Positions 551 to 28,889 of a stretch of 64,000 nt of DNA are shown piece after piece (within the stretch, counting starts at the first letter, position 1; each line of letters opens with the position of its first letter). The position numbers and the translations under genes were made by a program. Below the pieces are notes generated by a model. The model was not told the origin of the DNA, did not search any database, and was given only the letters and a program-made list of their open reading frames with translations. Location of the stretch: the NCBI GenBank assembly GCA_964629815.1, contig CAZVTA010000003.1, positions 112,721-176,720 on the forward strand, in the 5' to 3' direction. This DNA is from an uncultured Candidatus Saccharibacteria bacterium (GTDB lineage Bacteria; Patescibacteriota; Saccharimonadia; Saccharimonadales; AWTP1-31).

Positions 551-2326
551 CTAGTCTTCTATGAAGCCACCCGATTGATGGTTCCATAGGTCAGCGTAGA
601 TACCCTTTTTCTGTATGAGCTCGCTATGGGATCCTTGTTCGGCGATGCGCCCATTGCTGAGTACAATGATGCGGTCCATTTTTTGCACAGTGCTCAACCG
701 GTGCGCAATGACAACGGTGGTTCGTCCGTCGATGAGTTTCCAAAGTGCCTCTTGAATTAGTACTTCGCTTTCAGAATCGAGTGCGCTCGTTGCCTCGTCT
801 AGGACCACGATTGGCGCATCTTTGATCATTGCACGGGCAATAGCAATGCGTTGTCTTTGACCGCCCGATAGCTTGACGCCCCGCTCGCCAACCAATGTGT
901 CATATCCGTCGGGTAAATCTTTAATGAATTCATGCGCATTTGCGAGTCTTGCAACCTGTTCAATCTCTTTCTTCGATGCATTTGGTTTACCGTAGGCAAT
1001 ATTCTCTGCCAGCGAACGGTGAAAGAGCAAGGGCTCTTGCGGTACGTAGGTGATTTTTTTGTGCAAGTCATCTTGTGTAATGCTTCGTACATCTTGTCCG
1101 TCTACCTTTACCGAGCCGTCCGAGATGTCGCTAAATCGTAGCAATAAGCGAGTAAGTGTGGACTTGCCTGAGCCAGAGTGTCCAACAAGACCTATTTTTT
1201 CACCCGGTCGTATATGCAGATTAAAGTTATTGAACAAGGCTTTTTTATTGCCGTCGTGCGTAAATGAAACGTTTGCAAATTCAACTTCTCCATTGCCCAC
1301 TGCCACAGTTTCTGGAGAAACCGGGTCTTTTATTTTTGGCTCAAGCGTCAATATTTTTGCCATGTCGCTTGCATCGCCAAGTGCGCGGTTGTAATTTCGT
1401 AACGAGCTGTTACTGAAGTTGAAAAGCTGGTCGGCAATGGTAGCCGAGTAGTTTAATATCAAAAACACTGTTGCTACGTTTGCGCCATAGTTCACTATGC
1501 TTATGGCTGCAGCAATAAGCGCTGTTATCTGCATAATGCGCGTAAACATAGAAAAGACGGTTATTTGTAGCAAAAAATAGCGAATTACACGGTATAACGA
1601 CTTCTGGGTATTCCGCGTGTATCTACTGAAGCGTGCGTCTTCGTGTTTCTTTGCAGAGTAGCTCTTGATAGCAAGTATATTGGTGATGCTGTCAGCTAAA
1701 GCTCCAGTCTGTTTGCTTTCGGTTGTAGCATGGTGAGCCCCGGCTTTTCGTGATTTGTTGGTCAGTAGAACAGCGCTTGTAATAAACAGGACCACTACAA
1801 TGTTAAACAGGATAACGAACAAAGGGGCGCGCTTATATAGTAGTATCGACGTAAAGAATACGCCCCACAACAAAGGCAGCGTGCCGTAAATAGTAGTATC
1901 GGCAATACGGACGTATGCGCCGACCAGCTTGTTTGTTTGCGACACAAGCGAGCCCGTAAAGTGATTGGCATGAAAATCAGCACTTAAGCTTAGAAGATGG
2001 CTATGTACTTTCTCGGCCAGCGATTTTGTAACACGACCTTCTAACGGCCATGTCGAGAAATCTACTATACGCCATGTAAGTACGCCGAAAAGCATGATCG
2101 CCGCATACCAAAAAAGCTGCGGGCCAAAACTTGCTAGCACATTACCTTTTTCATATGCACCCCGTGCAAGTTTGTCGAGTATGTTTGCTGCAATAAGTGG
2201 GGGGAGAAAATTATTAACGAAAGTTGTAACTGGTATAGTGACTAACGCGACCAATACCAGCAGGGGGTGTCTTGAAACATGCTCCCAATAGAGTTTTAAT
2301 GTGGTTTTTGCATGAATGGATTTCAT
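551..2326 (-). CDS. ABC exporter, fused permease + ATPase (MsbA-like type I exporter)
   Basis: 591 aa; TM-rich N-terminal half; Walker A GHSGSGKST, signature LSGGQRQR, Walker B VVLDEATSALD. Confidence 0.9.
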   Translation of the reverse strand: MKSIHAKTTLKLYWEHVSRHPLLVLVALVTIPVTTFVNNFLPPLIAANILDKLARGAYEKGNVLASFGPQLFWYAAIMLFGVLTWRIVDFSTWPLEGRVTKSLAEKVHSHLLSLSADFHANHFTGSLVSQTNKLVGAYVRIADTTIYGTLPLLWGVFFTSILLYKRAPLFVILFNIVVVLFITSAVLLTNKSRKAGAHHATTESKQTGALADSITNILAIKSYSAKKHEDARFSRYTRNTQKSLYRVIRYFLLQITVFSMFTRIMQITALIAAAISIVNYGANVATVFLILNYSATIADQLFNFSNSSLRNYNRALGDASDMAKILTLEPKIKDPVSPETVAVGNGEVEFANVSFTHDGNKKALFNNFNLHIRPGEKIGLVGHSGSGKSTLTRLLLRFSDISDGSVKVDGQDVRSITQDDLHKKITYVPQEPLLFHRSLAENIAYGKPNASKKEIEQVARLANAHEFIKDLPDGYDTLVGERGVKLSGGQRQRIAIARAMIKDAPIVVLDEATSALDSESEVLIQEALWKLIDGRTTVVIAHRLSTVQKMDRIIVLSNGRIAEQGSHSELIQKKGIYADLWNHQSGGFIED

Positions 2327-2580
2327 ATGCAGCCTCCTGCTGCAGTTTAGTTAAGGGTGATGATATTTTTTGTGGTTAACAACGAACCGGTGCGTTTAAG
2401 CTTGGTCGCTGCAGGCGACCGAAGAGACGCTGAGATAGCTAAAAGAGCTATACATGATGTTGTGGCCGCCTTTCCTTTATGTTGACAATTACAACAACTG
2501 TAGCATAAGCGCACCGAAAAAAACAAGTGAACAGAATGAAAAGTTGTAAAAAAGACAAGATAATGATATAATACATAATT

Positions 2581-2886
2581 ATGAATGCAGATTCTATGGA
2601 TGTTATGCCATTGGGTGAATGCGAATTCCGTACTGGGCTTATGGAAGAGCTTGATAAGGCTCAAGAAGAGTTTAAACGACACGATCTAGGTGGTCACTTA
2701 GATCCACGAGCAATTGGCAACGAAGGTCTAATGGCTCGTGCCGAACGGCGCGTTGAAGAACTTGCTCGTCTTATTACTAATTGCGCACTGCTTTGTCAGA
2801 GCTGTGGAATTGAGAGTATGTCGCGCAATAATCCTATTACTACGCCGGTATCTCGTGCAGAATGTCCCATGAAAAACCAGCAATAA
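2581..2886 (+). CDS. Hypothetical small protein
   Basis: 101-aa ORF; TTGTAA-17-TATAAT promoter-like sequence (2544-2572) ends 8 nt before the ATG; no recognisable motif. Confidence 0.4.
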   Translation: MNADSMDVMPLGECEFRTGLMEELDKAQEEFKRHDLGGHLDPRAIGNEGLMARAERRVEELARLITNCALLCQSCGIESMSRNNPITTPVSRAECPMKNQQ

Positions 2887-2924
2887 GCTTGCAATAACAG
2901 GGGTAAACGGTATACTAGATTCGT

Positions 2925-3806
2925 ATGAATAAAGTCATCTTATATTACAAATTTGTACCTGTTACAGACCCTGCAATGACTGTTCGGTGGCAGAAAGAGT
3001 TGTGCGCACGTTTGCAGCTAAAAGGCCGCATAATCGTGAGTAAGCACGGCATTAACGGTACGCTTGGGGGTGATATCGAAAACCTACGCGAGTACAAACG
3101 CGAAATGAATCGATCGGTTGTATTCAAGGGGATTGTATATAAGTGGAGCAATGGTAATGGCGAAGAGTTTCCTCGTTTGAGCGTAAAAGAGCGTCCGGAG
3201 CTTGTCGCTTTTGGTGTGCCCGACGAAGTGCAGGTTGACGAAAAGGGTGTTGTTGGCGGCGGCAAGCACCTAAAGCCCGAGGCACTTCATAAGCTCATGG
3301 CAGAAAAGGGCAACGATGTAGTTTTTTTTGATGGACGTAACGCGTACGAAGCAGCCGTTGGAAAATTCAAAGATGCTATTGTTCCTGAAACCGAGACAAC
3401 ACACGATTTTATTTCGGAAATTGAAAGTGAAAAGTACGACAATATTAAGGACAAGCCAGTTGTTACCTACTGTACCGGTGGAGTACGCTGCGAAATTTTA
3501 AGTGCCCTTATGAAGAAACGCGGCTTTAAGGATGTTTATCAAATTGACGGTGGTATTGTGAAGTACGGCGAGAAGTATGGTGATGATGGCCTATGGGAAG
3601 GTTCGTTATATATATTCGACGGCCGTATGAATCATCGTTTTTCTGACAAGTCCCAAGATATTGGTACATGCATTTACTGCAATAAAAATACCAGTCGGTA
3701 TATAAATTGTGCCGATGTATCGTGCAACAAACTTGTATTGGTTTGTGAACAATGTGATCAAAAAACACACTGCAAAACACACCAAAAGCAGACCACTAGA
3801 GTGTAG
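2925..3806 (+). CDS. trhO: Rhodanese-domain tRNA uridine(34) hydroxylase family (UPF0176/TrhO-like)
   Basis: 293 aa; rhodanese active-site loop CTGGVRCE; C-terminal Cys-rich tail; TATACT box at 2911-2916, 8 nt before the ATG. Confidence 0.75.
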   Translation: MNKVILYYKFVPVTDPAMTVRWQKELCARLQLKGRIIVSKHGINGTLGGDIENLREYKREMNRSVVFKGIVYKWSNGNGEEFPRLSVKERPELVAFGVPDEVQVDEKGVVGGGKHLKPEALHKLMAEKGNDVVFFDGRNAYEAAVGKFKDAIVPETETTHDFISEIESEKYDNIKDKPVVTYCTGGVRCEILSALMKKRGFKDVYQIDGGIVKYGEKYGDDGLWEGSLYIFDGRMNHRFSDKSQDIGTCIYCNKNTSRYINCADVSCNKLVLVCEQCDQKTHCKTHQKQTTRV

Positions 3807-3822
3807 TAAAACTTACATTTAT

Positions 3823-4010
3823 TTGACATACCAACCACTTTATTGATATTTGTGGTATTACAACTGAGTGTTGGTTGTAGACAATGAAACATAACTCGTA
3901 TTTGGACGCTTGAGTTATGTGGAGTCAGTAGCGTAACCGGGCAACCAAACTTTCTCTGCTATAACGGCTCGAGAGGTTTGGACCCTAACAGGCCAAACCT
4001 CTTTTGTATT
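3823..4010 (+). promoter_or_regulatory. Candidate leader/attenuator: promoter-like TTGACA (3823-3828), hairpin 3890-3919, mutually exclusive antiterminator (3945-3956 with 3971-3981) and terminator (3971-3981 with 3993-4002, then TTTGTATT)
   Basis: Segments CCAAACTTTCTC / GAGAGGTTTGG / CCAAACCTCT read directly. The middle segment can pair with either neighbour. No obvious promoter lies between the terminator and the SD-led ATG at 4083. Confidence 0.4.
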
Positions 4011-4082
4011 AGCTAAATAAATATGCAAAGTGAGCGAGTCTAGTGACTGAGCCTAGCTACGCATATGCCAAAAGGAGATACA

Positions 4083-6986
4083 ATGCCCGAACACAGCCCT
4101 GCACGCTATTCGGAAGAGCTTACAAAATTAATGGCGTGTACAGATAATGATTCCTTAGTGCGCGTACATGATGCACTGTATGTTCGTGATGGCGAAGACT
4201 GGCAGTACCTACACCATGTAGGCGGAGTGCGACTATATGATCCTCGATACGACGAAGTGAAAACAAATGGCCAGCCCCAAGAACTGAAGCCGTGGGAGCA
4301 GTTTGTGCTAAACGGTGATTTTACAGTAATTGGCGACTACTTTCGCGACGGTAGACATCGCGATGTTGGTGCACGAGTACTTGGGGTTGAAGCAACAGAT
4401 TTATGTGCAGATGCACTACGAGAAGAGTTGGTAAGAGGCAAGGACCAGCTTGTATCGTTTGGCCAAGCCGGTAAAACGGTTGCGGTTGCCGCAGGCGATG
4501 GGGTAGTGTTTATGGCCCGGAAGACAGGCGAACATTCTAAGCAAATTGTCGCAGCAGCGGCTGCATCTGCCGTGCTATTTGGTGGTGTTGGGCTGCGTAT
4601 GGATCATATGGTTCCCGAACAGCCCGTGCCCACAGAACAAGCGCACGCCGCGACGCGGGGCGTTTCGATTGCAGTGCACGTAGATTCAACGACGGATGTC
4701 GAGGATTTGTCGTATCAGGTTGGTATGCCGCTCGAGCAAGTGCGACTTTCTGCCGACGGCAAAACGGCACACGTTACTATTCCACAGCCAACAATATTAC
4801 CAAAAATGACGCATGAACAAGAGACAGAACTTGCAACTCAGCTTGGTATTGATCCTCAGGTTATGAAAGCTGCCAACGAAGATACAACGAGCACAATTGT
4901 GCCGGTTCAGGACCTCGAGTTGGTACAGGTTACGGCGATAAGCCCAAATACTAAAGCAGTAGCGCAGGCGGTAGGCTTGCATGAGCAGGCAGTACAGGCA
5001 GTAACGATTGGCGATGAACATATGCTTGCCATGAGAACGCACATGATTGATGCCGACCCAACGGTTTGGGAAGACATGGCTTCCATCGTTTCTGTCGCAG
5101 CAAATTTACCTGAAAACGCTCAACAAAAAACTACGGTGGTTGAGGGCCAGACACCTGCAGAAGTGGCGCCGACACCGCAACCTGCACCCGAAGTTATAAC
5201 TCCCGAAGCAAAATATCATAAAGACATAGCAGAGGTGCAAAAAGCGCTCGAACATGCAGTTCAGACAGGGGGAGACCTTGGTCCGTTAAATCATATGGTA
5301 GTCTATTCGCCGTTATTTAACCCACGGCACGATTTGCCAGGCGATCTTGAATCTACTCGGCGTATACGATATATGCCACCTTCAAATCTGATGGAAATAC
5401 CCGGTTTGAAATACGAGTTTTCTCGTGGGGCGGGCGATATGCAGCGCTATGCAACTAATGAGACGGTCGCGACCACACTATACCTAGCGTATGCTTACCA
5501 ACAATATCTTGCACAGCATCCAGAATTACAGGCTACAATTGGCAACTCGTGTTTGCGGATTGGTGATTTGTCTGCAAAACACGATCATAAAACACACCAT
5601 GGTTCCATGGTGGACTACACTTCAAGCTTAAACTGCGACGTTCAGCACGGTCACCAGGTGGCAGATGGTCCTGTATTGTGGCTCAACCGTTCAACCGGCG
5701 GTGTGAGCGGAAGAATTGAAAATCCGCATTATGACCGAGCTATGGACATGTTCTTGCTGCAGGCACTAATGGGGGCTCATATTGGCGACAACTCATTAGT
5801 AGGCTCGATCCTCTACAACATTGATGGTGTAGATGTGCCGCGTTTGAAGAAGGCTGCAAACCATAGCAATCACGCTCATATAAATACAGCACCAGCGTTT
5901 AAAGATCTGCACCTGAAGGAATTTGCAGTTGGGGGTGAGCGTCCAGAGCTTAATCTAGATGGTTTGCGGGCAAGCGTGTTTGGTGATTACGTCCAAGGTT
6001 ACGGAGTGCCTGGTGTAAGTGATATGCCCCTATCCACGCTTGAGCAGCCAACTCAGCCGGCTCCCGTCGCACCTGAAGCAGTGGTAGCTGCGCAGGAAGT
6101 TACTGCTTCGCCTGAAGATCAATTTAAGTGGCATGTTGGTATGCTATTGAACGAAATTGCAGCCGGCGAGGGTGGGTATGATTCGGTTAACCGTGGTGTT
6201 GCCGGCGACACAAAAGTTGGCAGCGAAGCCTACCAGCGATTGTTTAGTGGACGGCAGTTGTCGCAGCTGACGATTGCAGAAATTCAGGCTAGCGATGCGT
6301 TTGCGGTGGGTAAATATCAGTTCATACCAAAAACCCTCGAGTCTGCAGTTCGTGCTTTGGGATTCGATAGAAATCGTGTGTTCGATTCTGCAACACAAGA
6401 TGAACTTGCAACAAAGTACTTGTTGTTCGCCAAGCGCCCAGCGTTAGCCAACTATTTGCGTGGTCAGTCAGACGACGTAAATGCTGCGGTTACTGCGCTG
6501 TGTATGGAGTTTGCGTCGATGCCGTGTCTCGACGGTACAGGGCATTACGATGGTGATCGTGCTGGCAATAACGCTGTGGGTGGTACAGAACGCGTCGCCC
6601 ATATACGGGCGCTGCTTACAAATGTGCGCAACGCCTTTGTTGGCTCGATCCTTACGGCCTATGCAGAAGCAAATTTGCCACCGGTTGAACCAGAAGAGGT
6701 TCCGATAGCCCCGACTCCGCCTATAACGCCATCTACGACCGCGGCGGTGCAGGCCGAGCCAGAAGTAGTACCACCGGTAACTGAAGCTGAAACATCTCGC
6801 GGTGCAGCACAGCAGGACGACGTGACTGGCCCAATTGTTTCGCTTTCGGAAGAAAGTGTGCGGCGAGTGCTGGGTTCGGTGATCGATGATGAAAACCGTA
6901 TTAACGATGCACTACAACAACTACAGGTTAATGACGAAGGTAGATACCAAATATCTACACAGCAGTTAATAGAGTTATCACAATAA
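4083..6986 (+). CDS. Large membrane-anchored putative cell-wall hydrolase: LAS-type metallopeptidase-like region + lambda-lysozyme/lytic-transglycosylase-like domain, Pro/Ala-rich linkers
   Basis: Start moved to the ATG at 4083, preceded by AAAGGAGA. One TM (QIVAAAAASAVLFGGVGL). HKTHHGSMVD (~5578-5616) plus NHSNHAHI (~5859-5885) resemble the HxxH..D / HxH motifs of MepA/M15-like LAS peptidases. EGGYDSVN...VGKYQFIPKTL...FDSATQDELA (~6166-6420) resembles phage lambda R-type lysozymes. Confidence 0.55.
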   Translation: MPEHSPARYSEELTKLMACTDNDSLVRVHDALYVRDGEDWQYLHHVGGVRLYDPRYDEVKTNGQPQELKPWEQFVLNGDFTVIGDYFRDGRHRDVGARVLGVEATDLCADALREELVRGKDQLVSFGQAGKTVAVAAGDGVVFMARKTGEHSKQIVAAAAASAVLFGGVGLRMDHMVPEQPVPTEQAHAATRGVSIAVHVDSTTDVEDLSYQVGMPLEQVRLSADGKTAHVTIPQPTILPKMTHEQETELATQLGIDPQVMKAANEDTTSTIVPVQDLELVQVTAISPNTKAVAQAVGLHEQAVQAVTIGDEHMLAMRTHMIDADPTVWEDMASIVSVAANLPENAQQKTTVVEGQTPAEVAPTPQPAPEVITPEAKYHKDIAEVQKALEHAVQTGGDLGPLNHMVVYSPLFNPRHDLPGDLESTRRIRYMPPSNLMEIPGLKYEFSRGAGDMQRYATNETVATTLYLAYAYQQYLAQHPELQATIGNSCLRIGDLSAKHDHKTHHGSMVDYTSSLNCDVQHGHQVADGPVLWLNRSTGGVSGRIENPHYDRAMDMFLLQALMGAHIGDNSLVGSILYNIDGVDVPRLKKAANHSNHAHINTAPAFKDLHLKEFAVGGERPELNLDGLRASVFGDYVQGYGVPGVSDMPLSTLEQPTQPAPVAPEAVVAAQEVTASPEDQFKWHVGMLLNEIAAGEGGYDSVNRGVAGDTKVGSEAYQRLFSGRQLSQLTIAEIQASDAFAVGKYQFIPKTLESAVRALGFDRNRVFDSATQDELATKYLLFAKRPALANYLRGQSDDVNAAVTALCMEFASMPCLDGTGHYDGDRAGNNAVGGTERVAHIRALLTNVRNAFVGSILTAYAEANLPPVEPEEVPIAPTPPITPSTTAAVQAEPEVVPPVTEAETSRGAAQQDDVTGPIVSLSEESVRRVLGSVIDDENRINDALQQLQVNDEGRYQISTQQLIELSQ

Positions 6987-14583: not shown

Positions 14584-14606
14584 TAATTCTGACTTGAGCC
14601 TATTTC

Positions 14607-14746
14607 TGGTGCGGATGAGATGGCTTGTTCAGTTCCATCCGGAATATGAGCAGTGCGAACGAGCCGTTAGGCGAGCTTTAGGGGGAGGGGTACGAAATTT
14701 GGATTCACTCCATATTCGTACCGGAGGGGTTCACCCCTCCTGAATG
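14607..14746 (-). other. tRNA-Leu(CAG) 3'-half mimic with spacer. Hairpin GGAGGGG-TGAA-CCCCTCC is followed by a GGTACGAA/TTCGTACC hairpin. A T-arm-like hairpin GATGG-AACTGAACAAG-CCATC follows, and the mimic ends in T-CATCCGC-ACCA.
   Basis: The last 14 nt are identical to the tRNA 3' end (14747-14760). The pseudo T-stem differs from the real GGAGG/CCTCT by paired changes. Confidence 0.6.
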
Positions 14747-14833: not shown

Positions 14834-14917
14834 ATATGATTTGAATGTTAAAGGTACTTCAGATATGTAGATAGTGGGGTCCCCACAAAATTGATAGATT
14901 TTGAGGGGTAAGGTGTT

Positions 14918-14958
14918 GCGCGTCTACCATTCGCTAGACAGCGAACCGCCACATCCGC
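14918..14958 (-). other. Pseudo 5' fragment of tRNA-Leu(CAG): acceptor 5' strand + D-arm, with the D-loop AAT replaced by a 16-nt hairpin TTCGCT-GTCT-AGCGAA
   Basis: GCGGATGTGGCGG[TTCGCTGTCTAGCGAA]TGGTAGACGCGC versus the real GCGGATGTGGCGGAATTGGTAGACGCGC. A TTGCAG-17-TATTAT promoter-like sequence lies just upstream. Confidence 0.6.
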
Positions 14959-17029: not shown

Positions 17030-17980
17030 TCAGTCAAGTAGCAGAAACTCATCTGCTTTAGTAGGCGCAAGTCCTTCGGGGCTTACGCCAATAGCAAGAA
17101 AATATGCAACATATCGATTCATAAAACGGCCCCACGCAAATAGTACGTCGTCGATTGCCGTGTACTGGCCTTGTTTTAAAACAACGCGTTTTGTGGTCTC
17201 GTCTATTTTACTTTCGTCTGTCACAAAGCCAGAGTGCGAACCTTCACCAACGATGCCACGCTGTTTTAAAAACGAATAGTTTTCTACCGTTGTTGCAAAG
17301 GCGGTCCGCGCTACGGGGCAGCCTACACTTTCTCGCTTTGGTATGCTTCTGTGTACGAGTGCGGTTGCTTCTCTTGTGAGGCTAATAGTATGTAGGCCAG
17401 ACTTGGTGTCTACGACTATCTCGTAGGGTGACAAGACAGCATTACTTGTGTTTTCAAAAAATGATGCATTGTCATACTCGAAGGCCTTGCTGAACGTAAG
17501 TTCAGTGCTGCATATTGGTCCAAAGTCGCGTGCATTAGGTTGGTATCGCCCAATTTGCGCAAGTGCCATACTGCCAAGCATCGAGCCAAACCACCCGGTT
17601 TGATACAGCTTGGCATGGTCGGCAAGACTGAGTGGCTCTTCAAGTAAGCCTTCGCGCAGGCAGAACTTACTTATATCGTTGCCAATTGCCCCTGCCATCA
17701 TTCCGGTAAAATGCCGGTCTGCAAAGCCGTGTTTATATACATCTCTGCCGGAAAATTCAGTGACGCCGTGTTGTTCTGCAAAGGTGTCCTTCGCATCGTC
17801 GCTTATTTCTAGATAGATCTGTGACTCTTTACCAATATCGACAGCATCGCCAAACAGACCGATTCGATGTGGCTTAAGGGCGTCTATATCTGGGACAAGA
17901 CTTGCCCGTGCATGGTGCGTATAAATAGCGGGCGCAACCGTACCATGAAACTCTTTTCGTAACGTGTGCATATCGGACAT
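17030..17980 (-). CDS. Hypothetical protein (orphan)
   Basis: 316-aa ORF with no motif recognised. Checked for tyrosine-recombinase R..HxxR..Y and found none. Confidence 0.55.
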   Translation of the reverse strand: MSDMHTLRKEFHGTVAPAIYTHHARASLVPDIDALKPHRIGLFGDAVDIGKESQIYLEISDDAKDTFAEQHGVTEFSGRDVYKHGFADRHFTGMMAGAIGNDISKFCLREGLLEEPLSLADHAKLYQTGWFGSMLGSMALAQIGRYQPNARDFGPICSTELTFSKAFEYDNASFFENTSNAVLSPYEIVVDTKSGLHTISLTREATALVHRSIPKRESVGCPVARTAFATTVENYSFLKQRGIVGEGSHSGFVTDESKIDETTKRVVLKQGQYTAIDDVLFAWGRFMNRYVAYFLAIGVSPEGLAPTKADEFLLLD

Positions 17981-18102: not shown

Positions 18103-18189
18103 GCGCGAGTGCTGGAATTGGTAGACAGGCTACGTTGAGGTCGTAGTGTTCGTAAGGACGTGGAGGTTCAAGTCCTCTCTCGCGCACCA
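18103..18189 (+). tRNA. tRNA-Leu(GAG), type II, CCA encoded
   Basis: GCGCGAG..CTACG-TTGAGGT-CGTAG..GGAGG-TTCAAGT-CCTCT-CTCGCGC-ACCA; 87 nt. Confidence 0.95.
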
Positions 18190-18198
18190 AAACAATAT

Positions 18199-18227
18199 GC
18201 CGACCTCGAAGGTCGGCTTGTTGTTTT
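18199..18227 (+). terminator. Intrinsic terminator after tRNA-Leu(GAG)
   Basis: GCCGACC-TCGAA-GGTCGGC followed by TTGTTGTTTT. Confidence 0.7.
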
Positions 18228-18254
18228 GTAGCCGGTGGATTTGAACCGATAGGT

Positions 18255-18339
18255 GAGAAATGCCAGTGGCATTTTGCAAGGAAACCTTCTCTTGAAAACT
18301 TGTTTTCAAAGACGAAGTTTCGGGCCCGCAGAATGTGGG
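18255..18339 (+). ncRNA. 85-nt three-hairpin module, copy B
   Basis: GAGA-AATGCC/AGT/GGCATT-TT-GCAAGG-P2(AAACCTTCTCTTGAAAAC..TTTTCAAAGACGAAGTTTC)-GGG-CCCGCA/GAA/TGTGGG. Lies between ..ATAGGT and CAAGTCC.., which is a T-loop context. Confidence 0.6.
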
Positions 18340-18360
18340 CAAGTCCTCTCTCGCGCACCA
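18340..18360 (+). repeat. 21-nt direct copy of the tRNA-Leu(GAG) 3' end (T-loop CAAGT through ACCA)
   Basis: CAAGTCCTCTCTCGCGCACCA is identical to 18169-18189. Confidence 0.9.
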
Positions 18361-18371
18361 AGCAAAATAGT

Positions 18372-18400
18372 AACGACCGAAAGGTCGTTTTTGATTTTTG
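18372..18400 (+). terminator. Second terminator closing the Leu(GAG) complex
   Basis: AACGACC-GAAA-GGTCGTT followed by TTTGATTTTT. Confidence 0.65.
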
Positions 18401-18405
18401 TACGG

Positions 18406-18433
18406 TTGACAGATTGGTTGGCTGGTATATATT
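18406..18433 (+). promoter_or_regulatory. TTGACA-16-TATATT promoter; ATG at 18440 lies 6 nt after the -10 box (leaderless)
   Basis: Read directly. Confidence 0.55.
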
Positions 18434-18439
18434 GAGGTC

Positions 18440-18691
18440 ATGAAACATAATTTACAGAAGCCAGAAGTTTTGTGTGCACGGAATGTAATTATCTTTGAGT
18501 CGCCATACGCGGATGAGCCTCGATTAGATACGCCAGATGCAGGAAGTATGCTGAGCGAATATCCTCATGTGCCACCAGAAGTAGCCCGCGGTGCCCTTGA
18601 AAGCCTTACACAACTCGCAGATCTTGATATGCGTAGCCCAGAACGAGTTGCTGGGCTGCTTGCAATCGCAGACACTTTATCAGACCGATAA
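18440..18691 (+). CDS. Hypothetical protein (orphan cassette 1, gene 1)
   Basis: 83-aa ORF. Confidence 0.5.
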   Translation: MKHNLQKPEVLCARNVIIFESPYADEPRLDTPDAGSMLSEYPHVPPEVARGALESLTQLADLDMRSPERVAGLLAIADTLSDR

Positions 18692-18694
18692 TGT

Positions 18695-19234
18695 ATGACA
18701 AGCGAACGATATTTGTACGGACCCACAAATGGATTTGTAATTCCAGATAAAGCAGAGGTCAAAGCGCTGCCAAAAGGTATACGAAAATATACTGACAGAA
18801 TTGCGCCTCAAGGAAAGAGATGTCCTGACGGAATGTGGCGATCCGTTCCCGACGATGATTTTGCTTATGACGTTTACCTTACAAATGAAGAAGATGAGCT
18901 GTGGGTGAGACGCGCAACCCCATCGGTATTTCGTATGCAGGTACATACCCCACCGGGATTAAGCGGGGAGATAGAGCGTGTAATTTACAATTCGAGCGCA
19001 GGCAGTGCTGGAGTGTATGAATTTGGTGATTACGGTGCAGCAATCAGTATTGAGTCGGGCAATCCAGAAGAAATTGTTTCGATTCACAAGACAGACGATC
19101 CAGAAGGTTACCAACGTAAATTAAAATTTGTTTCTTGTTTACTGCTCGATAAATTGCTGCAGCGAAATCATTATAGGGAATTCTATCTTTCAAGAGCACT
19201 TGGGGGCGCCATGATTGACAGAGCGGTTGATTAG
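18695..19234 (+). CDS. Hypothetical protein (orphan cassette 1, gene 2)
   Basis: 179-aa ORF, 3-nt gap to the previous gene. Confidence 0.55.
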   Translation: MTSERYLYGPTNGFVIPDKAEVKALPKGIRKYTDRIAPQGKRCPDGMWRSVPDDDFAYDVYLTNEEDELWVRRATPSVFRMQVHTPPGLSGEIERVIYNSSAGSAGVYEFGDYGAAISIESGNPEEIVSIHKTDDPEGYQRKLKFVSCLLLDKLLQRNHYREFYLSRALGGAMIDRAVD

Positions 19235-19249
19235 GTTATATTAAAGGGC

Positions 19250-19555
19250 ATGCAAGAGCAACAGATTTCTCCAGGGGCAGCAACAAGAGCAAGAATAATG
19301 ACAACGGCCGAAGCGTGGCGTGCAACTTTGCACCCAAGCGATGCAGAATCATTGCGAAATCCTGCAGAACTGCTCGCTGCATTTCAGGATCACCAGATTT
19401 TTGCGAGTATGTTGGCCCGCGAGTTTCCTGAATCGATGCCTGGCCCCTACGAGCTATCTACCGAAGATATGGTTGTACTGCAAGGCTTGCGCCGTGCGCT
19501 GCCGTCTGCGGCCGATAGACTGTGGGAACAAGCCTATCCTATAGAAACCGCATAG
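19250..19555 (+). CDS. Hypothetical protein (orphan cassette 1, gene 3)
   Basis: 101 aa. TTGACA (19215-19220)-16-TATATT (19237-19242), ATG 7 nt later. Confidence 0.5.
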   Translation: MQEQQISPGAATRARIMTTAEAWRATLHPSDAESLRNPAELLAAFQDHQIFASMLAREFPESMPGPYELSTEDMVVLQGLRRALPSAADRLWEQAYPIETA

Positions 19556-19558
19556 CAT

Positions 19559-19918
19559 ATGGCACTTATTCGAGTTACTCATTTAGAATGTGGAGACGTA
19601 AAGCTTACTTCTAAAGATGTGAAGCTGTATACGTACGAAGGTAATGCCGAATGCCCGTCGGGCTGATATAGGTTTACGTGTTCAGAATGCGGCAAAATAG
19701 CATTGTATGATGCCGACCCGCAAGCTTTCGATATCTTACGTGCAGCAGGCTGCATAATAGAGGCGGTAAATGCGCCCGAGCATGATAGTAAAGAGGTTGA
19801 TTCAATAACGCTCCAGCAAGGTGTACTGTCTACAGATGAGGCTCTCGACACAATGAGGGCGCTCAATAGTGCGAGCGACCACCAAATTATGGAAATACTG
19901 ACCCGCAGCGTGCGCTAA
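19559..19918 (+). pseudogene. Cys-containing small ORF interrupted by an in-frame TGA (19664-19666); either two ORFs (35 aa + 71 aa) or a disrupted/recoded gene
   Basis: Own translation: MALIRVTHLECGDVKLTSKDVKLYTYEGNAECPSG*YRFTCSECGKIALYDADPQAF...; both parts are in the same frame. Confidence 0.35.
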
Positions 19919-19980
19919 GCCGCATTGTTGCATTTACAGATAAAAAAGGGTAAAATACTGCAGTTGCATACGTGCAAAAT

Positions 19981-20057
19981 GGGTTGTTAGCTCAGTTGGC
20001 TAGAGCATCTCGTTTACACCGAGGGGGTCGGGGGTTCGAGTCCCTCACAACCCACCA
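19981..20057 (+). tRNA. tRNA-Val(TAC), CCA encoded
   Basis: GGGTTGT..TCTCG-TTTACAC-CGAGG-GGGTC-GGGGG-TTCGAGT-CCCTC-ACAACCC-ACCA; 77 nt. Confidence 0.95.
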
Positions 20058-20065
20058 CGAAAACG

Positions 20066-20090
20066 GCCGGTCTTATCGACCGGCTTTTTT
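20066..20090 (+). terminator. Intrinsic terminator after tRNA-Val
   Basis: GCCGGTC-TTATC-GACCGGC followed by TTTTTT. Confidence 0.75.
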
Positions 20091-20134
20091 CGTGCTTCGG
20101 TGCGGTCTTGAATATCCGACCAAAGGGTCGGGGT

Positions 20135-20219
20135 GAGAAATGCCGGTGGCATTTTGCAAGGGAGCCAACTCTTACAAACTGGTTTGTAAAGATGTTGCGA
20201 CGGGCCTGCCAAAGGTAGG
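20135..20219 (+). ncRNA. 85-nt three-hairpin module, copy C
   Basis: GAGA-AATGCC/GGT/GGCATT-TT-GCAAGG-P2(GAGCCAACTCTTACAAAC..GTTTGTAAAGATGTTGCGAC)-GGG-CCTGCC/AAA/GGTAGG. Flanked by GGGTCGGGGT (20125-20134) and TCGAGTCCC.., so it sits inside a pseudo tRNA-Val T-loop. Confidence 0.6.
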
Positions 20220-20241
20220 TCGAGTCCCTCACAACCCACCA
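20220..20241 (+). repeat. 22-nt direct copy of the tRNA-Val 3' end
   Basis: TCGAGTCCCTCACAACCCACCA is identical to 20036-20057. It is followed by a 16-bp perfect hairpin (20241-20276). Confidence 0.9.
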
Positions 20242-20352
20242 AAGGATAAGTCCCATCAAGATGGGACTTATCCTTTGGCTCCGTGTAGTTTTTACAAAGG
20301 TGGTTGTTTGCGCTTCTGCTTTTGCTACAATCGAACACATTGAGGAGGGTAC

Positions 20353-20805
20353 ATGGAACATTCGCCGGAAATGACTTACGGTGCTAGCTCGCTCGGTGCC
20401 GCAAGCTCAGAAGCTCTGCAACAGCAATACCAAGCCGCACTCGGTCGTATAGAAGCGCGAGAAGACGGCGATTACCTAGATGGATACCCACTCCCACCGG
20501 ACAACGACGATGTATGGAAGACGCAGAGAATTGACGCAGACGTAACGCGTTTTATTGAGCCCTCAGTAGGGTTTGAGAGCGTTTGTTGGACTACTGAAAG
20601 GCGCATTTCGATCTTAGAAATTACCAACGCTGTGCAGCGGCAACGTAATATCCAAAGTATTATTAACGGCTGTGGGCCGTTTGATATTACTCCAGAACAG
20701 ACGGTGTTTATTGGCCTAGAGTTGATGCGTCAGGCAAAACCTAGTCGTATGCAAAAATTGGCAGCTTTTGTTGGCCGTATTGTGGAAGGAATTGCAGAAG
20801 CATGA
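20353..20805 (+). CDS. Hypothetical protein (orphan cassette 2, gene 1)
   Basis: 150 aa; TACAAT box and GAGGAGG SD upstream. Confidence 0.55.
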   Translation: MEHSPEMTYGASSLGAASSEALQQQYQAALGRIEAREDGDYLDGYPLPPDNDDVWKTQRIDADVTRFIEPSVGFESVCWTTERRISILEITNAVQRQRNIQSIINGCGPFDITPEQTVFIGLELMRQAKPSRMQKLAAFVGRIVEGIAEA

Positions 20806-20981
20806 CGCACGAGCAGATGGCAGAATCTTGCCCATACAGCGAAGAAGGCATTGCGGCGGTAGCAGCCGTGGTGGAAAAAATATTTGCTGGCCCCAGTCCA
20901 CAATATGTCGAATGGTTGTCGGGTTATTTGCAGCAACGGCACGAAGTAGCAGCACGTATTGGTTCACTGCCATTGTTCTAG
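20802..20981 (+). CDS. Hypothetical 59-aa protein (below the ORF-track cutoff)
   Basis: Own translation: MTHEQMAESCPYSEEGIAAVAAVVEKIFAGPSPQYVEWLSGYLQQRHEVAARIGSLPLF. ATGA overlap with the upstream stop. Confidence 0.45.
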   Translation: MTHEQMAESCPYSEEGIAAVAAVVEKIFAGPSPQYVEWLSGYLQQRHEVAARIGSLPLF

Positions 20982-21021
20982 ACGTGCGTGGTGCTATACT
21001 CGATATGAATGGAGGTATGCT

Positions 21022-21594
21022 ATGGCAGATCGTAGTGCAGAAAGTCCGTTGCTGGGTATAGAGCATGCTTGTGGCGGTTGCGAACAGGTTGACGTGTTAG
21101 AGCGTCAAGCAGGCGAGATATTACGTGCATCTGGCATGGTTGGGTTTGTGAACGAAGAAGGAACGGTTAGAGTGTGGGTCGGTAGAGATTCGATAGTCGA
21201 TCGACCGCGCGAAGAGCGTTTAGCGCAGGCTGGTATGGTTATTGATGCCGAGGTTCTGGGTAGTAACGATTCGCTGCGTTGTGCTGCTGGTTGCCTTTTG
21301 GCCGAAGTTTGCCTGAGCGATGTGTATAGGGATGTCAATGAATCGAATCATCAGTATAGGCAAGGCCATAAGTGGCACCAGATGCCGCTAGAAGATATTG
21401 TTGCCATGCCGCCACTCCTGTCCCCTGACGATGAGGTTACGAGATTTATAGAAGAGGCGTTTGGCGACACGGCAACGGAACATCAGGCTGCCGAAAGGCC
21501 TACGCACGGCACGGTGCATGTTCCACAGGTAGACGGTACAATAGAACGGTTTACCATTCGTCGCAGCGAAATTAATAGTAGTCAGGTACAGTAA
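21022..21594 (+). CDS. Hypothetical protein (orphan cassette 2, gene 3)
   Basis: Start moved to the ATG at 21022, which has a GGAGG SD 6 nt upstream; 190 aa. Confidence 0.55.
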   Translation: MADRSAESPLLGIEHACGGCEQVDVLERQAGEILRASGMVGFVNEEGTVRVWVGRDSIVDRPREERLAQAGMVIDAEVLGSNDSLRCAAGCLLAEVCLSDVYRDVNESNHQYRQGHKWHQMPLEDIVAMPPLLSPDDEVTRFIEEAFGDTATEHQAAERPTHGTVHVPQVDGTIERFTIRRSEINSSQVQ

Positions 21595-21603
21595 CCAATT
21601 ACT

Positions 21604-21846
21604 ATGGATATAGAACAGATACAACCAGCGGACAGTCCAGCGATTGCAAGGCTTCGGTTTACAGACGTAAACGGCAACGTCCAAGAGCGGAGCATACCAA
21701 CCAAGCCCATATTGAATATTGGTGAATGCGCATTAAGGACCGAGTGGCCAGAACCACCAGCCGAAGCGCCTTTGGGCAGGGCGATTATTCGTACCGATAC
21801 ATACCCGGGCTGGGTAACGGTTCCTACGCGGCTACTGTTGAGCTAA
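21604..21846 (+). CDS. Hypothetical protein (orphan cassette 2, gene 4)
   Basis: 80-aa ORF. Confidence 0.45.
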   Translation: MDIEQIQPADSPAIARLRFTDVNGNVQERSIPTKPILNIGECALRTEWPEPPAEAPLGRAIIRTDTYPGWVTVPTRLLLS

Positions 21847-21970
21847 CTCGATAAGGTGGGCAACAAAGTCCCACACTGGGTGTTCAAGCCGTGCGTAATA
21901 ATGACGCTGTTCGCCTTCGGGTGTTTCGACTCGGCGTATCATTCCTAGTCGTGCTAGGCACGCCATCTCT

Positions 21971-22041
21971 TGGTGGCTCCTCCCAGATCGCTTCACCGAA
22001 CTGGTCGTTCGCTCCGCTCACTTTTCCAGTTCTCGTCTGGG
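21971..22041 (-). other. tRNA-Phe 3'-half mimic: intact T-stem CCCAG/CTGGG with a 44-nt hairpin-forming insertion in the T-loop, then AGGAGCC-ACCA
   Basis: Minus strand: CCCAG-ACGAG[AACTGGAAAAGTGAGCGGAGCGAACGACCAGTTCGGTGAAGCGA]T-CTGGG-AGGAGCCACCA. The last 17 nt are identical to 22083-22099. Confidence 0.6.
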
Positions 22042-22048
22042 TACCATT

Positions 22049-22082
22049 AAAAAAGACCCCAGCTTTAGTGGGGTATTTTTAA
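22049..22082 (-). terminator. Terminator directly after tRNA-Phe
   Basis: Minus strand: AAAAATACCCC-ACTAAAGCT-GGGGTCTTTTTT. Confidence 0.7.
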
Positions 22083-22158
22083 TGGTGGCTCCTCCCAGAC
22101 TCGAACTGGGGACACAAGGCTCTTCAGGCCTCTGCTCTACCAACTGAGCTAAAGAGCC
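22083..22158 (-). tRNA. tRNA-Phe(GAA), CCA encoded
   Basis: GGCTCTT-TA-GCTC..GAGGC-CTGAAGA-GCCTT-GTGTC-CCCAG-TTCGAGT-CTGGG-AGGAGCC-ACCA; 76 nt. Confidence 0.95.
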
Positions 22159-22217
22159 ACAACCCGTCTATTTTATGAGAAAAAACACTTTTCGGCAAGG
22201 GTAGGGCGGTTAATAAC

Positions 22218-22349
22218 TTGCAAAAACACATTTGTCGTATACAATAGGCAAAAGTATGAACAGTATTTGTATGGCAAAGAAGACAAAGCGACAGCCCTAG
22301 CCGAAGCGGCCTTTTTTGACATGAAGCCCCGCCTCGGCGGGGTCTTTTT
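22218..22349 (+). ncRNA. Candidate small transcript: TTGCAA-16-TACAAT promoter, about 100 nt, two tandem terminators (22300-22317, 22327-22349)
   Basis: GCCG-AAG-CGGC + CTTTTTT, then CCCCGCC-TC-GGCGGGG + TCTTTTT. Contains only a 14-codon ORF (MNSICMAKKTKRQP). Confidence 0.3.
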
Positions 22350-22421
22350 ATGCTGTATGTCGATAAAAAGATTCATCTAGGGCCAGCACAGACAATGCTA
22401 ACTTTAAATGAACTGTAATAT

Positions 22422-22775
22422 ATGGAAAATAACAGAACTATACCAATTCAACCAGACATTGAGCCACTTGTGCCGTTACTCATGGTAGAGGCTATCCGCG
22501 AATCAGGGCAGTTGGCTGTATCGGGGCGGCCATTGTTTGTGATGGGTGGCGAAAAAGAACGCTATTATAACGACACGGTTATAGAGCTAGACGTGCCGCT
22601 GTACATATCGGCACTGCGTTCGATTCGCATTCCGCTTCTTGGGCACTCGCATCTCGAAAAAGTGTTCATCGGTGAGTACCCAGTGCTTACGGGTATACAC
22701 CAGGTTACGGGCGAAGACTACATGTTTGGCATACGGCCAGAGCTGAACTTCGACTGGTGCGACAACGCGGTCTAA
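22422..22775 (+). CDS. Hypothetical protein
   Basis: 117-aa ORF. Confidence 0.5.
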   Translation: MENNRTIPIQPDIEPLVPLLMVEAIRESGQLAVSGRPLFVMGGEKERYYNDTVIELDVPLYISALRSIRIPLLGHSHLEKVFIGEYPVLTGIHQVTGEDYMFGIRPELNFDWCDNAV

Positions 22776-23107
22776 TACCACTTGGCGCCGTACATAAGCC
22801 CACCAATGATGATCAGCTGCTGTAAGACGAGCCAGCACGCCTGGTAAAATATAATAACCTTTTCTTTATGGACGATTCCGTACCATAACCATACAAGCGT
22901 AAACAGCTGGTAGCCCACCCACGAACTAATGGCTATGCCCTCAGCGGACTTGTCGCGAAAAATCACATAAAGCTGCGGTATCGTTACGATTGGTTCAATG
23001 GCGGCCACAAGGTAAGTGAGCCGGTCTACGAGCAGGGGCTTGGCCTGTTTTTTTACAATGAGGGCTTTGCGGGCTTTGGTGTGTTGGTGTTGCCGAAATT
23101 TTGTCAT
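22772..23107 (-). CDS. PQ-loop / SemiSWEET-like 3-TM protein (paralog of 14230-14529)
   Basis: 111 aa; VTIPQLYVIF PQ motif; aligns along its length with the 99-aa paralog. Confidence 0.6.
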   Translation of the reverse strand: MTKFRQHQHTKARKALIVKKQAKPLLVDRLTYLVAAIEPIVTIPQLYVIFRDKSAEGIAISSWVGYQLFTLVWLWYGIVHKEKVIIFYQACWLVLQQLIIIGGLMYGAKWY

Positions 23108-23184
23108 GCTTATGCTTTAACTTTACTTCATACTAACAAATCTTGAGTTATTGCACAAAATGCCGTATAATCTCAATCTGTTAT

Positions 23185-23306
23185 GCGGGTCTAGCTCAGT
23201 TGTTTAGAGTGAGAGCTGCCTGAGGCAGGTCGCAAGGAAACCTTCTCTTGAAAACTTGTTTTCAAAGACGAAGATTCGGGGTCGCGGAACGTGACCGTCC
23301 TTGCCA
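23185..23306 (+). other. Pseudo 5' half of tRNA-Gly(GCC) (positions 1-24, then anticodon stem/loop CGTCCTTGCCA) interrupted by the 85-nt module
   Basis: GCGGGTCTAGCTCAGTTGTTTAGAG is identical to 23357-23381. TTGAGT-17-TATAAT promoter at 23143-23171. TTTAGAGT (23203-23210) can pair with ACTCTAAA (23321-23328). Confidence 0.6.
23211..23295 (+). ncRNA. 85-nt three-hairpin module, copy E
   Basis: GAGA-GCTGCC/TGA/GGCAGG-TC-GCAAGG-P2 (identical to copy B except 1 nt)-GGG-GTCGCG/GAA/CGTGAC. Confidence 0.6.
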
Positions 23307-23356
23307 GGCCAAGGTTGTCTACTCTAAAATCAAGAGATGTTCGTTTAGCAATATAT

Positions 23357-23433
23357 GCGGGTCTAGCTCAGTTGTTTAGAGCGCGTCCTTGCCAAGGACG
23401 AGGCCAGGGGTTAGAGTCCCCTGACCCGCACCA
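23357..23433 (+). tRNA. tRNA-Gly(GCC), CCA encoded
   Basis: GCGGGTC..CGTCC-TTGCCAA-GGACG-AGGCC-AGGGG-TTAGAGT-CCCCT-GACCCGC-ACCA; 77 nt. Confidence 0.95.
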
Positions 23434-28815: not shown

Positions 28816-28889
28816 GGCGCCTTGGCGGAGTGGTTACGCAGCGGTCTGCAAAACCGCGTACACCGGTTCAAATCCGGTAGGTGCCTCCA
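28816..28889 (+). tRNA. tRNA-Cys(GCA)
   Basis: GGCGCCT..GCGGT-CTGCAAA-ACCGC..CCGGT-TCAAATC-CGG..GTGCC-TCCA; 74 nt. Confidence 0.9.

Follow-up and report, generated by a model that had tools for sequence, protein, structure and literature searches.

Why should a short non-coding sequence stand, again and again, inside partial copies of transfer RNA (tRNA) genes whose intact versions lie alongside? The question is raised by a stretch of 64,000 nucleotides (nt) from an uncultured Candidatus Saccharibacteria bacterium (assembly GCA_964629815.1, contig CAZVTA010000003.1, positions 112,721 to 176,720 of the forward strand), which is referred to below as the window. Three copies of the sequence, termed the module (85-87 nt), were located in the window: copy B at 18253-18339, copy C at 20133-20219 and copy E at 23209-23296, beside intact genes for tRNA-Leu(GAG), tRNA-Val and tRNA-Gly, respectively. 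A sequence-only reading, made from the letters and a list of open reading frames (ORFs), had placed these three copies inside tRNA-derived sequence, and the strings that it quoted are present there.

The finding is real, phylum-wide and larger than that reading could see. The module occurs in well over a hundred places across Saccharibacteria-type bacteria, and the recurrence of both the module and its layout in other genomes shows that neither is due to chance. The module is a new RNA family. Our favoured reading, to which a probability of roughly 45% is given, is that it belongs to an old structured-RNA cassette that would be transcribed with tRNA genes and was built on, and spread through, tRNA homology.

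A conserved fold on one strand

Within the window, copies B, C and E are mutually 75-86% identical across 85 nt (repeat family D1, recovered by repeat finding), and a degenerate pattern of the module matched three times, as compared to zero matches in 100 shuffles. Each copy comprises three hairpins, P1, P2 and P3, separated by short unpaired segments.

Copies beyond the window were collected by pattern scanning. The first scan, which used one genome per species, returned 36 stretches with approximately 24 true copies; its pattern used a 15-nt tip of P2, versus 14 nt in the window copies, and window-like variants were missed and copies under-counted. Nearly all of the copies found were in Saccharibacteria or Saccharimonadales assemblies, with single records labelled Patescibacteria and Parcubacteria. 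A covariance model (R1) was built from a MAFFT alignment of 23 copies and located 44 copies in 27 sources (the genome set). Metagenomes were scanned using a pattern of the 5' half of the module plus CGGG only, blind to P2 and to the flanks; at least 120 stretches were returned, and R1 found 92 copies among the 80 listed, on which all figures for 92 copies (the metagenome set) rest. A larger alignment was then assembled from 110 distinct copies (Saccharibacteria and Patescibacteria assemblies plus metagenomes).

The module is a real, conserved and strand-specific fold. In the 23-copy alignment (plain MAFFT), P1 and P3 have 7 and 6 base pairs (bp), respectively, and the 17 bp of P2 are interrupted by a bulged C, one unpaired base and a bulged A. 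Pairing is kept in 94.5% of the stem cells of these copies, and double changes were seen in 18 pairs, values that were reached by 0 of 500 shuffles; slid controls pair at 32-50%. The 110-copy alignment, which was fitted to the model and leans towards structure, gave 95.2% of stem cells paired, double changes in 28 of 30 pairs and 30-48% pairing in the slid controls. Compensatory changes are present in every helix and go beyond the controls, as in a conserved structured RNA. Because G.U cells outnumber A.C cells in the stems by 240 to 43, only the sense strand folds, and one G.U pair of P3 was kept in 103 of the 110 copies. Hardly any variation was seen among the 110 copies in the P1 loop (NGU), the P2 loop (CUNG) and the unpaired segments GUGA, (Y)GCAAG and GG, which is partly owing to how the copies were found; the 23-copy set agrees at positions outside the first pattern. 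Nested forms, with UGAGA-P1-GCAAG-P2-GGG twice and then a single P3, were seen at three loci (L006, L020 and L021). By eye, no covariation was seen between the P2 loop and the T-loop.

Searches for a known identity returned little. The module had no match in Rfam 15 at gathering score and only chance-level matches at E ≤ 10, and no description of it was found in the literature searched; the closest report deals with a different matter, the group I introns of tRNA genes in Patescibacteria (PMC13011429). Two resemblances were tried and rejected. A likeness to the specificity domain of ribonuclease P (RNase P; J11/12-P12-J12/13-P13-P14) came down to GGGUGAAA (J12/13) and GCAAGG (J5/15, catalytic domain), strings that lie in different domains of the Rfam alignment, and the module model scored 5 bits (E = 0.23) on E. 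coli rnpB. GUGAGA/GUGAC cannot be read as a K-turn or C/D box, given that the supposed D box is paired in P3, where it covaries, and that the tandem G.A pairs of P2 have no adjacent bulge.

Leader and trailer units at intact tRNA genes

The units occur in two layouts, a trailer downstream of the intact tRNA gene (units B and C) and a leader upstream of it (unit E). Their features in the window are as follows.

18103-18189, +: intact tRNA-Leu(GAG), cognate of unit B (ARAGORN; Rfam tRNA model, 48.9 bits)
18199-18227, +: terminator T1 between tRNA-Leu and unit B (terminator scan; 8-bp stem with 6 GC pairs, then TTGTTGTTTT)
18233-18252, +: spacer of unit B with an antisense-T-arm-like piece (sequence)
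18253-18339, +: module copy B, made of GUGAGA, hairpin P1, UGCAAG, long hairpin P2, GGG and hairpin P3 (family D1; R1, 103.1 bits, E = 3.5e-22)
18340-18360, +: tail of unit B, CAAGTCCTCTCTCGCGCACCA, the last 21 nt of tRNA-Leu(GAG) (exact match to tRNA positions 67-87)
18372-18399, +: terminator T2 after unit B (terminator scan)
19981-20057, +: intact tRNA-Val(TAC), cognate of unit C (ARAGORN; Rfam, 65.9 bits)
20065-20095, +: terminator T1 between tRNA-Val and unit C (terminator scan; 8-bp stem, then TTTTTTCG)
20104-20132, +: degenerate antisense T-arm piece of unit C, GGTCTTGA (20104-20111), and hairpin P0 (sequence; P0 folded)
20133-20219, +: module copy C (family D1; R1, 98.4 bits, E = 4.6e-21)
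20220-20241, +: tail of unit C, TCGAGTCCCTCACAACCCACCA, the last 22 nt of tRNA-Val (22/22 identical, tRNA positions 56-77)
20239-20280, +: long perfect palindrome after unit C, starting at CCA (sequence; not called by the terminator scan)
23143-23171, +: promoter-like site upstream of unit E, TTGAGT, 17 nt, TATAAT (promoter scan, 10/12)
23185-23209, +: head of unit E, positions 1-25 of tRNA-Gly(GCC), acceptor 5' strand and D-arm (exact 25-nt match)
23209-23296, +: module copy E (family D1; R1, 93.8 bits, E = 5.7e-20)
23296-23328, +: 3' piece of unit E, tRNA-Gly positions 28-38 (CGTCCTTGCCA, 23296-23306) plus an antisense piece (sequence; fold; promoter scan)
23357-23433, +: intact tRNA-Gly(GCC), cognate of unit E (ARAGORN; Rfam, 67.5 bits)

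In trailers, terminator T1 follows the intact tRNA. Next come a degenerate copy of the T-arm in antisense and a small hairpin, and then the module, a tRNA tail and a second terminator. The 3' arm of the small hairpin consists of the tRNA variable loop and the 5' strand of the T-stem (positions ~42-53), the module replaces T54/T55, and the tail of 20-22 nt runs from position 56 or 57 through CCA (56/57-77) and comprises what remains of the T-loop, the 3' strands of the T-stem and acceptor stem, and ACCA. The tail of unit B holds these same parts. In unit C, GGGTCGGGGT (20125-20134) is followed by the module, and hairpin P0 (CCGACC-AAAG-GGTCGG, 20116-20131) has the variable loop and T-stem 5' strand of tRNA-Val as its 3' arm; this combination of antisense piece and P0 recurs in five orthologous Val units. 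The palindrome at 20239-20280 stands where T2 would and is without a clean U-tract.

A leader often opens with a -10 box. The tRNA 5' part comes next and is followed by the module, another 8-12 bases of the tRNA and a short antisense piece, then frequently by the promoter of the real tRNA, and last by the intact tRNA. Heads cover tRNA positions 1-25, or 1-37 in tRNA-Pro(GGG), or reach the T-stem (~64 nt), and a -10 box with at least 5 of 6 bases at tRNA-like distance was found in 17 of 37 leader units. The TATAAT of unit E lies 13 nt ahead of the pseudo-tRNA start and is kept in orthologous Gly units. Its head had been recognised as that of tRNA-Gly in the sequence-only reading, at a length of 24 nt; the match is 25 nt long, and 28 nt with the upstream TAT counted. 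The CGTCCTTGCCA region is reshaped into a hairpin, CCTTG-CCAGGC-CAAGG (23299-23314), which is kept in 7 orthologous units. The promoter-like site of the real tRNA-Gly (23301-23330, +; TTGCCA, 18 nt, TAAAAT; promoter scan) is built from what is left of the anticodon loop in unit E together with that unit's antisense D-arm piece.

Insertion points of the module lie in the T-loop (54-56), at the junction of D-stem and anticodon stem (26-27) and in the anticodon loop (37-38). The base or bases preceding the module are almost always G or GG, and one or two tRNA bases are replaced at its borders with nothing duplicated. The claim that tRNA sequence lies on the flanks is supported and extended: the flanks are conserved across genomes, at a few defined insertion positions, and their similarity to tRNA is not coincidental. 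What stands around the module is tRNA-derived, as had been noted, but never a whole tRNA, since B and C hold only ~42-53 and 56-77, and E only 1-25 and 28-38; every pseudo-copy is without one end (one acceptor strand) of the tRNA. The neighbouring functional genes are uninterrupted, as previously described, and were called as intact cognates by ARAGORN.

A strand rule accompanies the two layouts. In the genome set, 34 of 44 copies lie within 150 nt of a tRNA gene, with the opposite strand in L007 only. In the metagenome set the corresponding figure is 64 of 92, with all 64 on the tRNA's strand and 23 isoacceptors represented; 32 of the 64 lie upstream and 32 downstream of the tRNA, and ten of the remaining 28 copies are at contig ends. 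Pooled, 97 of 98 such copies share the strand of their tRNA, and in neither set are copies found mostly away from tRNA genes. In a sample biased towards module loci, a copy of the tail followed 39 of 126 tRNA genes (28 with the module), and a copy of the head preceded 37 of 130 (32 with the module).

Given that the insertion points are loops or junctions, as in non-canonical archaeal introns, and that tRNA sequence continues on both sides of the module, a tRNA intron or a split tRNA, in which the module would be spliced out or the halves joined, has to be considered; the sequence-only reading had drawn this analogy to archaea. Foreign RNA at tRNA loops and junctions is also known from archaeal split tRNAs and from the group I introns of Patescibacteria, a lineage known for introns (PMC13011429). 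The analogy failed. Excision, with 80 boundary combinations and ARAGORN, yielded no tRNA from any of the 44 genome-set copies and a single marginal tRNA, from one combination, among the 92 metagenome-set copies; unlike in the known systems, removal of the module gives no tRNA, an acceptor strand is missing and an intact cognate adjoins. The module has only 85 nt and no group I core, with no Rfam intron match even at E ≤ 10, and its junctions abut helix ends (a bulge-helix-bulge motif was not formally scored). The pieces of a would-be split tRNA end at 25, 37 or 64, or start at 42 or 56, are not complementary to each other and have an intact cognate 35-92 nt away. The module is not an intron, and for the copies examined the whole idea stands refuted, with next to no probability left.

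Since the upstream spacer and the first 10 nt of the tail show complementarity beyond that of shuffles (mean z = −1.3, 25 units), the junction can be closed by the T-stem or by a spacer/tail helix. The host helix that had been proposed to close the module's hairpins is thus possible in B and C in the form of the T-stem, with pairing between the antisense piece and the start of the tail as the alternative. In unit B, GGATTTG (18237-18243) can pair with CAAGTCC (18340-18346), and these segments are paired in the RNAfold centroid; in unit E, the possible pairing partners are TTTAGAGT (23203-23210) and ACTCTAAA (23321-23328). The antisense piece of unit B, GGATTTGAACCG (18237-18248, +), is the exact antisense of the T-arm of tRNA-Cys (28816-28889) over 12 nt and fits this better than its own tRNA-Leu, which may reflect either exchange between units or a coincidence of similar T-arms.

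These pairings can be taken further. By strand exchange, the copied gene end would replace the tRNA's own strand to give a complete tRNA body that displays the module, or another insert, from its T-loop or position 26; the tRNA's own end would be sequestered by the antisense piece, and the product would be matured by RNase P and end in CCA, so that the locus would switch between two states, the tRNA and a module-bearing tRNA-like RNA. The smallest tails consist of exactly two 3' strands, those of the T-stem and the acceptor stem, plus ACCA, and their acceptor strand has no local partner, and tails and heads co-vary with the acceptor stem of the tRNA. The outer acceptor stem was present in the minimum-free-energy and centroid folds of both window co-transcripts tested, and constrained folding favoured the long form in 25/25 trailers and 34/36 leaders (59/61). 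Shuffled-spacer controls, however, attributed most of this preference to topology alone. Real trailers gave −8.7 versus −4.5 kcal/mol with shuffled spacers, and 14 of the 25 surpassed their shuffles in at least 14 of 15 cases, but leaders showed no excess (−5.8 versus −5.4 kcal/mol) and neither did window copies C and E. The trailer molecule so proposed would contain a strong terminator, co-transcriptional folding should favour the normal tRNA, and gene conversion accounts for the co-variation equally well. We regard this proposal as unlikely; if it were true, Saccharibacteria would use their own tRNA genes as a chassis for a small-RNA family.

Age, turnover and candidate explanations

The units are old, and some can be compared as orthologues. 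Five orthologous tRNA-Val trailers have a common layout, two terminators without shared sequence, and module stems that compensate; their tails are each 20/20 identical to their own tRNA, although the acceptor stems differ between species (CACAACCC, CATCACCC and CAGCGCCC). With all trailers taken together, a 20/20 match to the unit's own tRNA was found for 24 of 50 tails, and in 76 of 78 informative comparisons the tail resembled that tRNA more closely than it did the same isoacceptor elsewhere. Seven tRNA-Gly(GCC) leaders have in common the junction at position 25 and the reshaped anticodon hairpin CCTTGCCAGGCCAAGG; in L118, the sole Gly leader whose tRNA has a D-loop deletion, the head bears the same deletion. 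Identity with the cognate tRNA may be due to gene conversion or to selection for identity. In either case the tRNA-derived ends evolve in concert with the cognate tRNA, which argues against passive decay. The sequence-only reading had left two alternatives, a non-autonomous element surviving in redundant pseudo-copies and a tRNA-scaffolded non-coding RNA. Both survive, but simple decay of pseudo-copies is disfavoured because orthologues persist despite terminator turnover, stems compensate and ends track the cognate tRNA.

According to the favoured reading, the module would be the conserved core of small structured RNAs that are read with the neighbouring intact tRNA gene. In the leader (E), a copied tRNA promoter region and the first ~25 nt (up to ~64 nt elsewhere) would drive the module, and transcription would continue into the real tRNA. 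In the trailer (B and C), the module would lie past the tRNA terminator, be reached by read-through only, and end in the last 20-22 nt of the tRNA and a second terminator. The tRNA-derived pieces and the short antisense piece would supply expression signals and closing helices, probably giving a four- or five-way junction. The units would be old and mostly vertically inherited, duplicated and exchanged by recombination through tRNA homology, with their ends held identical to the cognate by gene conversion or by selection for pairing with the tRNA. Because the fold is kept in every copy, orthologues persist in very small genomes and the strand rule nearly always holds, each copy appears to be selected as a folded strand for which the direction of transcription matters. 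We infer that the module acts as an RNA, rather than as folded single-stranded DNA, and that it is co-transcribed with its tRNA. As to function, our guess is that a protein or RNA acting on tRNA transcripts uses the module as its binding platform.

Structured RNAs with tRNA-like parts are known as YrlA and other Y RNAs (PMC4201824), transfer-messenger RNA (tmRNA), MALAT1-mascRNA precursors and engineered tRNA scaffolds, and such parts could give processing, a CCA end and stability. Here, in contrast, the tRNA parts are literal partial copies of the adjacent gene rather than a free-standing mimic, and no Rfam match to YrlA or tmRNA was obtained. The self-matching design in two layouts suggests a natural counterpart of the tRNA scaffolds used for recombinant RNA expression. 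We know of no precedent for a conserved fold within self-matching partial copies of an adjacent tRNA gene, in mirror-image leader and trailer form. A functional RNA of this kind would constitute a new, widespread class tied to tRNA expression in a phylum with almost no known non-coding RNA biology. Saccharibacteria genomes are tiny and streamlined, and that they keep many units of 150-300 nt by their tRNA genes means that these are either needed or very good at persisting.

Several observations weigh against the favoured reading. A one-strand fold with G.T pairs fits a folded single-stranded DNA site equally well, and trailer units have no promoter of their own and stand behind canonical terminators (scans), so their RNA may be rare. 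Module variants group neither by tRNA nor by genome, and a unit may be present at a given tRNA in some genomes and absent in others, which together point to turnover or mobility; at tRNA-Phe, for example, no unit was found at four loci, a unit with another insert at three and an inverted module at one. The trailer scaffold of L007 is typical except that the module in it is inverted. In L028, L105 and L003, single co-oriented genes are each followed by a further tail, an arrangement that looks like repeated insertion events. In L046, L054 and L089, the host is not a tRNA at all: an intact terminator-like hairpin is immediately preceded by a partial copy of its 5' part, in which the module stands.

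The main rival is a non-autonomous mobile element that works at the level of DNA. The module, as folded single-stranded DNA or an element-encoded RNA, would be the working core of a small cassette that inserts in genes for tRNAs or other hairpin RNAs and brings a replacement gene end, so that the tRNA stays intact; it would spread by site-specific or homology-driven (Campbell-type or transformation-driven) recombination with an enzyme encoded elsewhere. The geometry is exactly that of target-restoring insertion (intact gene, insert, displaced gene end). Williams, in 2002, is said to have described T-loop-to-CCA pieces at the ends of elements integrated into tRNA genes, as in the tails here. 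The shuffling of module variants among tRNAs and genomes, the differing presence at tRNA-Phe, the tails that bracket single genes, the one inverted copy and the same logic at a non-tRNA hairpin all fit such an element, as do the tandem blocks of L059, where two blocks of promoter, pseudo-tRNA and module precede tRNA-Gln and a trailer follows it.

The DNA-level element is opposed by several results. No enzyme gene is linked to the module: recombinase, transposase, reverse transcriptase and RNA ligase were absent from the ~50 ORFs of the window (Pfam), no recombinase, transposase or reverse transcriptase was found near copies at 96 loci, and among the 617 clustered ORFs within 3 kb of copies at these loci no family occurred in more than 6. 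The trans-acting enzyme that the sequence-only reading had called for was consequently not found linked to the module in the window or near these copies. The module ends, GGTGAGA and GTGACC, are not inverted repeats, and neither terminal inverted repeats nor a target-site duplication was present; one or two tRNA nucleotides are replaced instead. Copies within a genome are only 75-86% identical, orthologues outlast their diverged surroundings with the fold kept in every copy, which would be unexpected for decaying selfish copies, and the orientation to the tRNA is almost invariant. Miniature inverted-repeat transposable elements (MITEs), REP/REPIN sequences and the Rickettsia palindromic elements, which insert into genes, including RNA genes, are likewise short, multi-copy, hairpin-rich and non-coding, and tolerated in gene-derived sequence. 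The module differs from all of these in the absence of terminal inverted repeats and target duplication, its nearly fixed orientation, its low within-genome identity with long-retained orthologues, and its invariant unpaired bases and conserved G.U pair. We consider a DNA-level element a serious alternative, though less probable than the favoured reading. Such an element would represent a new and harmless way to colonise essential single-copy genes, via a spare gene end.

Scars of larger elements form a related explanation, in which the tails would be attR sites of integrase-borne islands that were later deleted and the module a neighbour of attP. As in the att duplicates of tRNA-integrating elements, the tails are direct repeats of the tRNA 3' end from the T-loop through CCA, with the intact tRNA on one side and the displaced end on the other, and accessory-type genes lie between the repeated tails of L028 and L003. 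Unlike att duplicates, which enclose kilobases, the repeats here enclose ~150-190 nt, with only 60-90 nt and the module between them, and no integrase gene was found in any of the ORFs tested. Furthermore, 5'-end duplicates (leaders) are as common as 3'-end duplicates (32 versus 32), a conserved fold stands exactly at the junction and the repeats track the tRNA. Had the units arisen as scars of random deletion, an 85-nt fold would not have survived at more than 100 sites, nor would the scars follow later changes of the tRNA. An integrase-borne element is disfavoured because no recombinase, reverse transcriptase or endonuclease gene is linked, and island scars are judged improbable.

The loci with repeated tails deserve separate description. 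In L028 (600-4900, −), L105 and L003, up to six copies of a single tRNA's 3' tail (Lys or Gly-like) occur in ~4 kb, often with a full module unit, and two identical blocks in L028 span at least ~300 nt. The genes between the tails are unrelated and of accessory type, and no integrase or recombinase was found among the ORFs between them (Pfam scans). These arrays look like gene-cassette arrays anchored on a tRNA end. Integron attC sites and their cassette arrays likewise keep structure over sequence and a one-strand fold, and some loci here repeat units after single co-oriented genes; in contrast to integrons, the sites here go with the ends of tRNAs, promoters and terminators are placed as for an RNA, and an integron integrase was not found. 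The window was searched for extra tail copies as marks of gene cassettes, and none was found beyond the known units.

Other inserts and the surrounding chromosome

The design is not confined to the module. Two or three more tRNA-fragment units were found in the window at 14606-14722, 14895-14955 and 21971-22055, all on the minus strand, with other hairpin inserts in place of the module; they are partial duplicates of tRNA-Leu(CAG) (tail and head) and tRNA-Phe (tail), alike in leader and trailer design. In the tRNA-Phe unit, the T-stem CCCAG/CTGGG is kept around a 50-nt insert that holds CCAGTTC in antisense and in sense. A second recurring insert, ...AGCGAAAGTATTTTCTTTCG...AAGG, stands directly before the tRNA tail in L011 (downstream of tRNA-Ser(TGA)) and L082 (downstream of tRNA-Arg(CCT)), and may be another module family on the same tRNA-tail design. 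Downstream of the terminator-like hairpin, L046 (~2250-3080, −), L089 (~1350-1900, +) and L054 (~1-380, −) have in common a conserved non-coding stretch of several hundred nt with the blocks CACCCTTCAACCCACC, GTTAAAGGGGTTAGT, AAGTGGAGGGTAACAACTT and TAAGGTGCGTAAGAGG; it matched no Rfam family and is absent from the window. For annotation, such fragments will confuse both tRNA gene calls and island finders that depend on att sites.

The host DNA is an ordinary bacterial chromosome. Genes identified in the window by Pfam scans include those for leucyl-tRNA synthetase (LeuRS), LigA, BipA, a Mur ligase, UvrC, Ddl, NusB, RNase III and TrmD. ARAGORN called eight tRNA genes, including the Leu(GAG), Val and Gly(GCC) genes listed above and tRNA-Phe (22083-22158, minus strand). 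A phage origin was rejected: BLAST against phage records matched the tRNAs only, and a scan of viral contigs gave one chance match, within a coding region.

Small ORFs lie in runs between the five clustered tRNA genes (18440-19918, 20353-21846 and 22422-22775), and the ORFs between the window tRNAs matched no Pfam family. Beside the cluster, an ORF of 316 amino acids (aa; 17030-17980) has three homologues only among 5.8 billion proteins. A cyclic-di-GMP-II riboswitch was found at 3868-3951 (+; 68 bits, over the Rfam cut-off), which is noteworthy for a Saccharibacteria-type genome; downstream of it is an ORF of 973 aa (4065-6986) with no Pfam family. Finally, LeuRS (42197-45091, +) carries a NUDIX domain (residues 377-502) inserted after its editing domain.

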